Shown here piece after piece: positions 11,828-12,139 of a stretch of 44,264 nt of DNA. The translations under genes and the position numbers were made by a program. Location of the stretch: the sequence record PV637039.1; one strand, written 5' to 3'. Within the stretch, counting starts at the first letter, position 1; every line of letters starts with the position of its first letter. The notes beneath the pieces were generated by a model that saw nothing but the letters and a program-made list of their open reading frames with translations, had not been told where the DNA came from and made no database searches. Source of the DNA: Escherichia phage vB_EcoS_PS2.

Positions 11828-12086
11828 GCGGGACAGGCGGGACGTCCCGTTTTGTCCCGCCACCATTAAACAGCATATATACTCACTTTCATTGCATAAA
11901 CTAAAAGCGGGACAGGGGTGCTGTCCCGATCTGTCCCGCCCCTTAAAAGTGAATAGCTATGCGGTTTTTCTGCATAAACTAAACGGGACAAAAAGCGGGA
12001 CAGAATGAGGCGGGACAAAGCGGGACAGCACCCCTGTCCCAGTCAGTGCTGCCGCGGGTTTTAGCCGATCGGGACAGGCGGGACAA
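11828..12086. repeat. array of about 14 GCGGGACA / TGTCCCGC repeats
   Basis: Hexamer GGGACA or its complement at about 11830, 11839, 11845, 11854, 11909, 11923, 11933, 11985, 11997, 12011, 12021, 12034, 12070 and 12080; often in tandem pairs 9-11 bp apart; CTGCATAAA motif interspersed. Confidence 0.7.
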
Positions 12087-12090
12087 CTCC

Positions 12091-12139
12091 CAGTCTTTCA
12101 GACTAGACGGGGGTCAATGGCCCCCCTCGTCTGAGACTG
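12091..12139. other. conserved 49-bp imperfect hairpin element (copy 1)
   Basis: CAGTCTTTCAGACTAGACGGGGG-TCAATGG-CCCCCCTCGTCTGAGACTG; about 20 bp stem with bulges, no U-tract; near-identical copy at 40180-40229. Confidence 0.6.

Follow-up and report, generated by a model that had tools for sequence, protein, structure and literature searches.

What is the role of a 384-bp non-coding block between two tail genes of a siphovirus? The block lies in Escherichia phage vB_EcoS_PS2 (sequence record PV637039.1), a complete Dhillonvirus genome (HK578/SO-1-like siphovirus) of 44,264 bp, all of which was analyzed and is called the window here. According to the list of open reading frames (ORFs), 11823 is the last position of the T part of the G/T tail chaperone, and the tape measure ORF begins at 12208. 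An equal gap of 384 bp without annotation is found in phage EC115 and in about 150 Dhillonvirus records, and the gap is unannotated in most relatives. The ORF ends and these records thus bear out the gap (11824-12207) that a preliminary description of this DNA had pointed to. The region is 98% identical to Escherichia phages EC115 and 011D5. The current work suggests that this gap, site A, is probably a second and complete copy of an iteron-type replication-origin module, the ancestral copy of which, site B, stands 3' of the helicase-primase gene. The module is most likely read by the phage's own helicase-primase. The coordinates of all features are collected in Table 1.

The ORFs over the two sites, at 11866-12018, 12103-12255 (minus strand) and 39969-40271, gave no Pfam match, and gene callers placed no ORF over the iteron module in the T-to-tape-measure gaps of the sister lineages L297, L298 and L302.

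Site A contains 12 exact GGGACA/TGTCCC hexamers within 11830-12085 (260 bp), together with two 5-nt partial units (GGGAC/GTCCC) at 11840-11849; the earlier count of about 14 units is correct when the partial ones are included. The window has 17 copies of the word GCGGGACA, where 1.9 would be expected, and 0 of 100 shuffled sequences reached this number, which places the array well above expectation. Eight of these copies are located in the site A gap and six at 40072-40174. Neighboring units on the same strand are 9, 10, 10, 10, 12 and 15 bp apart; a spacing of 9-11 bp, as first described, holds for four of these intervals, but not for those of 12 and 15 bp. The palindromes noticed among the units are also present: GGGACAGGGGTGCTGTCCC, at 11909-11927, agrees in every position with the reverse complement of 12022-12040, and the 32-nt arms 11909-11940 and 12009-12040 are 94% complementary. 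Through these inverted arms, the iteron clusters of site A face each other across AT-rich DNA, with an A+T content of 0.72 (11861-11906) and 0.64 (11940-11984) compared with 0.46 for the genome.

Part of this array appears again 28 kb away. Positions 11949-12143 align with 40038-40233 in the same orientation, with 163 of 197 positions identical (83%), and both sites carry the same word. Site B corresponds to the right-hand part of site A only. The identity is unevenly distributed, with 54/59 and 17/17 in the iteron blocks and 48/50 in the hairpin, compared with 14/28 in the spacer between them. A recurrence near 40058-40229 in the same orientation had been noticed before and is correct; the statement that it shows only a few changes is not, since the changes amount to 17% and are concentrated. 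The module at site B begins 127 bp past the helicase-primase gene's stop codon, and its first iteron follows at about 160 bp, so that an origin there would lie directly 3' of its initiator gene. The same position relative to the helicase gene is observed in phiEap-2, SaI_NFG_5577, L158, L160, L173-L176, and more than 20 distant viral contigs. In phiEap-2 and SETP3, the T and tape measure genes abut without a gap, which suggests that site A is a derived duplication.

Both loci were flagged as early as 2009. In the GenBank entry of SO-1 (GQ502199), a sister Dhillonvirus, they are annotated as 'region A' and 'region B' with mutually similar direct, inverted and palindromic repeats; this entry is a feature note only. 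A literature search found no paper analyzing the repeats of the SO-1 regions, the Dhillonvirus genome papers examined do not discuss them, and searches for GCGGGACA, GGGACA or TGTCCC combined with iteron or primase returned nothing relevant. The class of element is known, and its place between tail genes is unusual. The additions made here are the assignment of an initiator, the iteron words that switch from relative to relative, the joint evolution of both copies, and the wide spread of the layout.

Relatives were gathered by pattern scans, by tblastn of a phage collection and by exact-protein look-ups. These relatives keep the scaffold of the module and change the word. The AT-rich GTGAATAGTTATGCA element is constant and occurs alike in phiEap-2, in SaI_NFG_5577 and in relatives with a switched word; iterons in direct and inverted orientation are likewise constant, while six words are used: GCGGGACA in the window, L158, L175 and L176 (protein identity to the window 68-81%); GTGTGGCA in L159 and L160 (67-69%); GTGTGCCA in L173 (68%); GGTGCCA in L174 (66%); CGGACAA in phiEap-2 (43%); and GGGGGAG in SaI_NFG_5577 (44%). 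The contigs of L159 and L174 stop inside the module. In the other relatives, the spacer, the tandem pair and the hairpin are also kept, and the position just before the hairpin holds a tandem iteron pair whatever the word may be.

The two sites appear to change together. In the sister lineages with a site A gap, the chaperone protein is 57-65% identical, and the word of the T-to-tape-measure gap is GTGTGCCA in L297 and GTGTGGCA in L302. These words match the helicase-proximal arrays of L173 and L160, respectively, from the same samples. Because both copies carry the same switched word, a single sequence-specific reader and selection on both sites are suggested. The same result bears on the idea that site A is a functionless remnant of an accidental origin duplication. 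Such an accident would agree with the absence of site A from the phiEap-2 and SETP3 lineages, in which the flanking genes abut. However, site A is kept in about 150 Dhillonvirus genomes with its iterons and hairpin nearly invariant, and it is kept in the sister lineages with its word switched together with that of site B. This co-switching contradicts the remnant, to which we give almost no credence.

Outside this group of phages, the arrays lead to the same gene. A scan of IMG/VR with a pattern of two GCGGGACA units 1-5 nt apart gave at least 120 loci, and a dense array was defined as at least five CGGGACA units within 500 bp. Among the matches listed, dense GCGGGACA arrays were present in 68 of 120 loci; the adjacent ORF belonged to the helicase family of the window in 26 loci, as determined by profile iteration; and the helicase-primase was the only window protein with homologues in many array loci. 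The array is typically non-coding and of mixed orientation and starts about 0-450 bp from the 3' end of the family helicase gene. In more than 20 unrelated contigs (G+C 0.48-0.66), it begins right after this end. When GTGTGGCA was used as a control word, 18 of the 120 matches listed contained dense arrays, versus 68 of 120 for GCGGGACA, and three of these 18 were again located directly 3' of family helicase genes. The distant family proteins linked to arrays are fusions of Prim-Pol and AAA_25 domains; at locus L064, a GGGACA array follows a P4-alpha-type protein (Toprim_3, D5_N, DUF5906). Five IMG/VR loci (L035, L051, L078, L045 and L084) were set aside. Their GCGGGACA arrays have one orientation, lie inside ORFs of 235-290 aa, and are probably coding repeats unrelated to origins.

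The neighborhood of these arrays is also relevant to a different function: they would serve in packaging, as pac sites, or in a type of partition, and their reader would be some other protein of the phage, for example the small terminase. Dhillonviruses use headful packaging and their pac site has not been mapped (PMC9022532), and several public assemblies begin or end inside site A, as might be expected of a pac site. In dozens of unrelated contigs, however, the arrays adjoin primase-helicase genes and not terminase genes; in the window, the small terminase gene (56-628) is far from both sites. Two sites of the same orientation 28 kb apart would, moreover, begin two packaging series. The breaks in these assemblies are located within the duplicated 190 bp, as expected of breaks caused by a repeat, and related metagenome contigs likewise end within the repeats. 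A packaging or partition role is accordingly considered very unlikely.

The contig of L159 ends 111 nt after the helicase-primase stop codon, that of L300 ends 23 nt after T, and breaks within the duplicated module are also seen in the GenBank assemblies NC_073074.1 and OX460974.1. Assemblies thus seem to be fragmented or mis-linearized by the 190-bp repeat.

The layout is different in Kagunavirus. In L155-L157, in which the helicase-primase is 33-35% identical, there is no iteron array 3' of the gene; its place is taken by a DicA-like repressor gene in convergent orientation and by a promoter region in which GTGAATAG forms half-sites. In the Dhillonvirus module, GTGAATAG is also contained in the AT-rich element.

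Which protein reads the word? The small helix-turn-helix (HTH) protein encoded at 37307, just upstream of the helicase-primase, had been put forward for footprinting, but this choice was wrong. The same recognition helix, STVRSWVRN, is present in phages with four iteron words, and a different one is present in L176, which keeps GCGGGACA; the HTH protein was thus ruled out as the iteron reader. Between L176 and the window, the HTH gene and the first ~220 helicase-primase codons have only ~45-55% nucleotide identity, while the identity is ~90% from 38307 through the origin, with the same iterons. The helicase, the C-terminus and the origin of L176 were inherited as a block. The primase N-terminus likewise does not track the iteron word. 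By contrast with the body of the helicase-primase, the C-terminal 105 aa diverge faster (identity 0.45-0.60 versus 0.70-0.79) and contain word-specific residues, and this domain is predicted to be a winged helix. The comparison points to the C-terminal winged-helix domain as the likely iteron reader.

A different motif, ATTGGTTGC, flanks site B on both sides. It has 15 exact copies (6228, 6242, 22343, 25275, 26953, 29518, 37111, 39923, 39977, 40012, 40294, 40384, 40415, 40934 and 42701), most of them intergenic and six of them flanking site B; with one mismatch, 27 matches were found against 12.5 expected. Because both the motif and the recognition helix are constant in the iteron-switched relatives, ATTGGTTGC is a candidate operator or promoter motif of the 37307 HTH protein.

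The module ends in a hairpin of 49 nt. As single-stranded DNA, 12091-12139 folds with -13.4 kcal/mol (z = -3.7), and 0 of 200 shuffled sequences folded as well. The hairpin was correctly described as having no U-tract: the sequence 3' of it is AATAAGG or CATAAAA, and a terminator scan called no plus-strand intrinsic terminator at 12091-12145 or 40180-40235. An intrinsic (Rho-independent) terminator was ruled out for this hairpin because the transcribed strand has no T-run. In Dhillonvirus, the stems are invariant and the loop is variable. The architecture is kept with other stem sequences in phiEap-2 (AGTCTTAG/CTAAGACT and GGGGGTGG/CCACCC), SaI_NFG_5577 (CTCCT/AGGAG) and L173. A G/C-rich palindrome with inverted iterons around it closes the array in distant families, and the inner sequence of this palindrome is phage-specific. 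In a count of perfect stems, those of at least 8 bp were found in 16 of 24 regions near distant origins versus 13.5% of control windows. Inverted iteron pairs largely explain these stems, and the excess is therefore weak evidence for a separate hairpin element.

A stable hairpin, in copies that are both oriented like the surrounding genes, could also belong to a module that is transcribed and acts as RNA, either as a structured RNA or as a protein sponge with GGGACA motifs and, at its end, a hairpin for processing or termination. The repetition of motifs that contain GGA is reminiscent of protein-sponge RNAs. Over the whole window, however, Rfam gave no match at gathering thresholds, and a relaxed search gave only sub-threshold models of microRNA-precursor hairpins, which are uninformative in a phage. 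The units form palindromes with copies on both strands, and distant phages have them in all orientations with respect to the gene; the hairpin lacks a T-run after it; and the word changes entirely between close relatives, as the adjacent protein changes its DNA-binding domain. An RNA function is most improbable. The preliminary description had left an iteron-like binding array, an origin, a pac-type site and a structured RNA side by side. The first two are favored by position, architecture and co-variation with the helicase-primase; the structured RNA has no support, and the pac-type site no positive evidence.

Known replication systems offer several parallels to an origin of this kind. In P4, a primase, a helicase and a C-terminal winged-helix origin-binding domain are reportedly combined in one polypeptide, the alpha protein, which is said to bind two iteron sites kilobases apart, ori and crr. 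Sites A and B are likewise two separated sites with the same iterons. However, the window protein has no Toprim or D5 domains (Pfam detects AAA_25 only), and the identity of a P4 alpha-type protein was rejected for it, as neither a Toprim primase nor a D5-type superfamily-3 helicase is present. The iterons of P4 also differ in sequence from those described here. The RSF1010/IncQ oriV is served by a RepA-like (AAA_25) helicase and consists of iterons, an AT-rich segment and hairpin priming signals. All of these have counterparts in the window. In IncQ, however, the tasks of initiator, helicase and primase are divided among three separate proteins, RepA, RepB' and RepC, whereas one fused protein is found here, and there are two ssi hairpins on opposite strands instead of one hairpin per site.

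In Staphylococcus aureus pathogenicity islands (SaPIs), the Rep/PriRep origin is located immediately 3' of the initiator-helicase gene and has 6-12 short iterons, with an AT-rich center and opposed orientation on each side; the C-terminal winged helix of Rep reads the iterons, the helicase self-loads, and PriRep5 is a primase-helicase fusion (PMC9371898). Short repeated words, opposed iterons around AT-rich DNA, a predicted C-terminal winged helix, and a joint change of word and initiator all appear to have equivalents here, and site B is also 3' of the gene. The differences are that SaPI Rep is a superfamily-3-type AAA+ protein whereas the window protein is RepA-like AAA_25, that SaPI iterons have 5-6 nt and those here 7-8 nt, and that neither a conserved terminal hairpin nor a second distant copy, both present here, is described in PMC9371898. 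The pRN1 system combines a small repressor (orf56), a prim-pol/helicase/winged-helix protein (ORF904) and an origin stem-loop 3' of the gene, which is structurally conserved, sequence-variable and essential; similar arrangements in some phages were noted by the same authors (PMC4234260). The operon of a small DNA-binding protein and a multifunctional primase-helicase, the cis stem-loop just 3' of the gene, and the Prim-Pol domains of distant array-linked relatives resemble this system. In contrast, pRN1 has a superfamily-3 helicase, no described iteron array, and a stem-loop of ~100 nt. The AAA_25 helicase, the iterons of 7-8 nt, the conserved terminal hairpin and the second copy between tail genes set the module apart from SaPI, P4 and pRN1.

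A possible mechanism can be outlined from these parallels. The 754-aa helicase-primase would bind GCGGGACA units through its C-terminal winged-helix domain, and the oppositely oriented iteron clusters would join protomers on either side of the two AT-rich segments, leading to melting. RepA-like helicase rings would then self-load, as SaPI Rep does. The G/C-rich compound hairpin at the 3' edge would be extruded from melted or supercoiled DNA, and, as was proposed for the pRN1 stem-loop, it might become a loading or priming landmark for the N-terminal primase. Site A would either be a second origin or act in cis as the partner of site B, a relation like that of crr to ori in P4.

Alternatively, the initiator may bind site A without firing, and the site would then be regulatory only. 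In the window, structural and tail genes occupy the plus strand from 56 to 24044, replication genes occupy the minus strand from 24069 to 37135, and the following plus-strand block opens with the small HTH gene and the helicase-primase gene. Site A is located within the late tail operon, an unexpected place for an origin. Its left palindrome ends in TTTT, and the position equivalent to left cluster 1 is annotated as a putative terminator in phage WFI; this cluster may have a double role as a terminator after the chaperone genes. The terminator scan found matches there on the minus strand only. On the other side, the extended -10-like motif TGATACAAT, invariant ahead of the tape measure gene, may serve this gene and the distal tail genes as a promoter. 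A regulatory junction would also agree with the gaps of the sister lineages, which contain either a single reverse-strand ORF of 57 aa or two of 126 and 123 aa in L297 (2162-2335), L302 (2177-2350) and L298 (2174-2922). These ORFs lie between the T gene and the iteron module, together with ATTGGTTGC motifs, and their presence suggests that the gap is an insertion site for extra genes.

Two forms of such regulation are possible. The site may titrate or handcuff the initiator, in the manner of iteron copy control in plasmids, or it may be a protein roadblock which, together with the terminator-like palindrome and the promoter-like TGATACAAT, couples expression of the tape measure and distal tail genes to replication. 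However, a simple titration site would require iterons alone, whereas no element of site B is missing from site A, which has both the AT-rich element and the hairpin and adds opposed iteron arms around AT-rich DNA, as is typical of a firing origin. Moreover, a consensus promoter scan called no sigma-70 site in site A or site B, TGATACAAT included. A purely regulatory site is therefore thought unlikely, although it deserves attention, and a complete origin module remains the preferred explanation of site A.

Several points weigh against this explanation. Initiator binding, melting and origin activity in Dhillonvirus are deduced from sequence, and the positional argument covers site B only, as site A is ~25 kb from the initiator gene. 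GC skew follows the direction of genes and transcription and is uninformative on origins. L297 with L173, and L302 with L160, were paired as one genome each on the shared sample alone. The window and L158 have the same GCGGGACA with a C-terminal identity of only 55%, no higher than in pairs with different words; the co-variation signal consequently depends on few residues in eight sequences. The profile does not connect the C-terminal domains of distant GGGACA-array proteins, one of which is of the P4-alpha type, to that of the window. The same word may thus be read by dissimilar domains, or the reader may lie elsewhere. As for the hairpin, RNAalifold on 11 hairpins found 1 of 12 pairs to be compensatory, with invariant outer stems and indels in the 3' halves, and the case for it relies on an architecture kept with differing stem sequences and not on formal covariation. 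Its role as a loading or priming landmark, proposed by analogy with pRN1, is the weakest step.

Table 1. Features of the two sites and of the genes associated with them in the window
Feature	Position	Strand	Basis
Site A: whole T-to-tape-measure gap, putative duplicated origin-type module	11824..12207	.	ORF list; ~150 Dhillonvirus records; SO-1 'region A' repeat_region
Left iteron cluster 1: GCGGGACAGGCGGGAC and GTCCCGTTTTGTCCCGC, two units facing two inverted	11828..11860	.	sequence
AT-rich spacer 1, 72% A+T, candidate DNA unwinding region; partly inverted copy of AT-rich element 2	11861..11906	.	composition
Left iteron cluster 2: GCGGGACAG-GGGTG-CTGTCCCG-ATC-TGTCCCGC; left arm of large inverted repeat	11907..11939	.	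arms 94% complementary
AT-rich element 2, 64% A+T: GTGAATAGCTATGC (11949-11962), CTGCATAAACTAA (11970-11982); duplication with site B begins here	11940..11984	+	
Four direct GGGACA iterons (11985, 11997, 12012, 12022), then one inverted (12035); last two form palindrome GGGACAGCACCCCTGTCCC	11985..12040	+	54/59 identical to site B
Variable spacer between iteron blocks	12041..12070	+	14/28 identical to site B
Two tandem iterons GGGACAGGCGGGACA just 5' of hairpin	12071..12085	+	17/17 identical to site B
Compound hairpin: outer stem CAGTCT/AGACTG, middle CAGAC/GTCTG, inner G-run/C-run; no T-run after	12091..12139	+	DNA fold
TGATACAAT, extended -10-like motif upstream of tape measure gene, outside duplicated module	12163..12171	+	read from sequence; invariant in Dhillonvirus
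Small HTH protein gene just upstream of helicase-primase gene; considered as iteron reader, excluded	37307..37636	+	
Gene of the 754-aa helicase-primase, proposed initiator and iteron reader; RepA-like AAA_25 helicase at aa 357-531	37647..39911	+	Pfam and PHROG matches
Predicted winged-helix core coding region, aa 666-737; proposed iteron-recognition domain	39642..39857	+	
Site B: helicase-proximal module copy	40038..40233	+	AT-rich element, iterons 40074-40130 and 40160-40174, hairpin 40180-40229

Another short word, CTGCATAA, has 7 copies in the window versus 1.2 expected. Five of these (11970, 12184, 12201, 40059 and 40227) are located at the edges of both modules, including one directly after the site B hairpin and one overlapping the tape measure start codon. 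In phiEap-2, CTGCATAAG likewise follows the hairpin.

Apart from the two sites, the family A DNA polymerase ORF (29812-33000, minus strand) encodes 1062 aa, compared with 737-776 aa in phiEap-2 and L158, and holds a nested ORF of 252 aa (30758-31516). The SO-1 record describes a group I intron at this locus. Rfam detects no intron anywhere in the window and the polymerase ORF is continuous, so that an in-frame insertion, such as an intein, is possible.

More tentatively, two consequences may be considered for the biology of these phages. Dhillonviruses and their sisters might need two communicating initiator-bound sites, similar to ori and crr of P4; site A, with its opposed arms, would then be the one that fires in both directions, and the entry of transcription into the tape measure and distal tail genes would also be gated by its occupancy. 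Or the iteron palindromes might trigger ABC-ATPase defenses of the OLD/Lamassu type. In HK578, escapers of OLD defense were mapped to gp46, the helicase-primase, and to the gp45-46 promoter, and OLD was proposed to sense origin hairpins (2026 preprint, bioRxiv 10.64898/2026.07.10.737580). The mapping also lends independent context to the preferred origin explanation. If hairpin-forming iteron palindromes do act as triggers, this would explain why the escapers map to the helicase-primase. Either idea is speculative at present.

A function is proposed here for a conserved and puzzling non-coding block of common coliphages that are used for work on defense systems and phage therapy, and a protein and a domain are named for testing. 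The six iteron words on one scaffold represent a natural series of specificity switches between origin and initiator, which can be used to study how winged-helix initiators are retargeted and to build orthogonal phage replicons. With the layout of primase-helicase gene, iterons and hairpin as a guide, origins can be predicted in many uncultured phages. Moreover, if it is true that OLD- or Lamassu-type defenses sense origin hairpins, these modules are candidate triggers.

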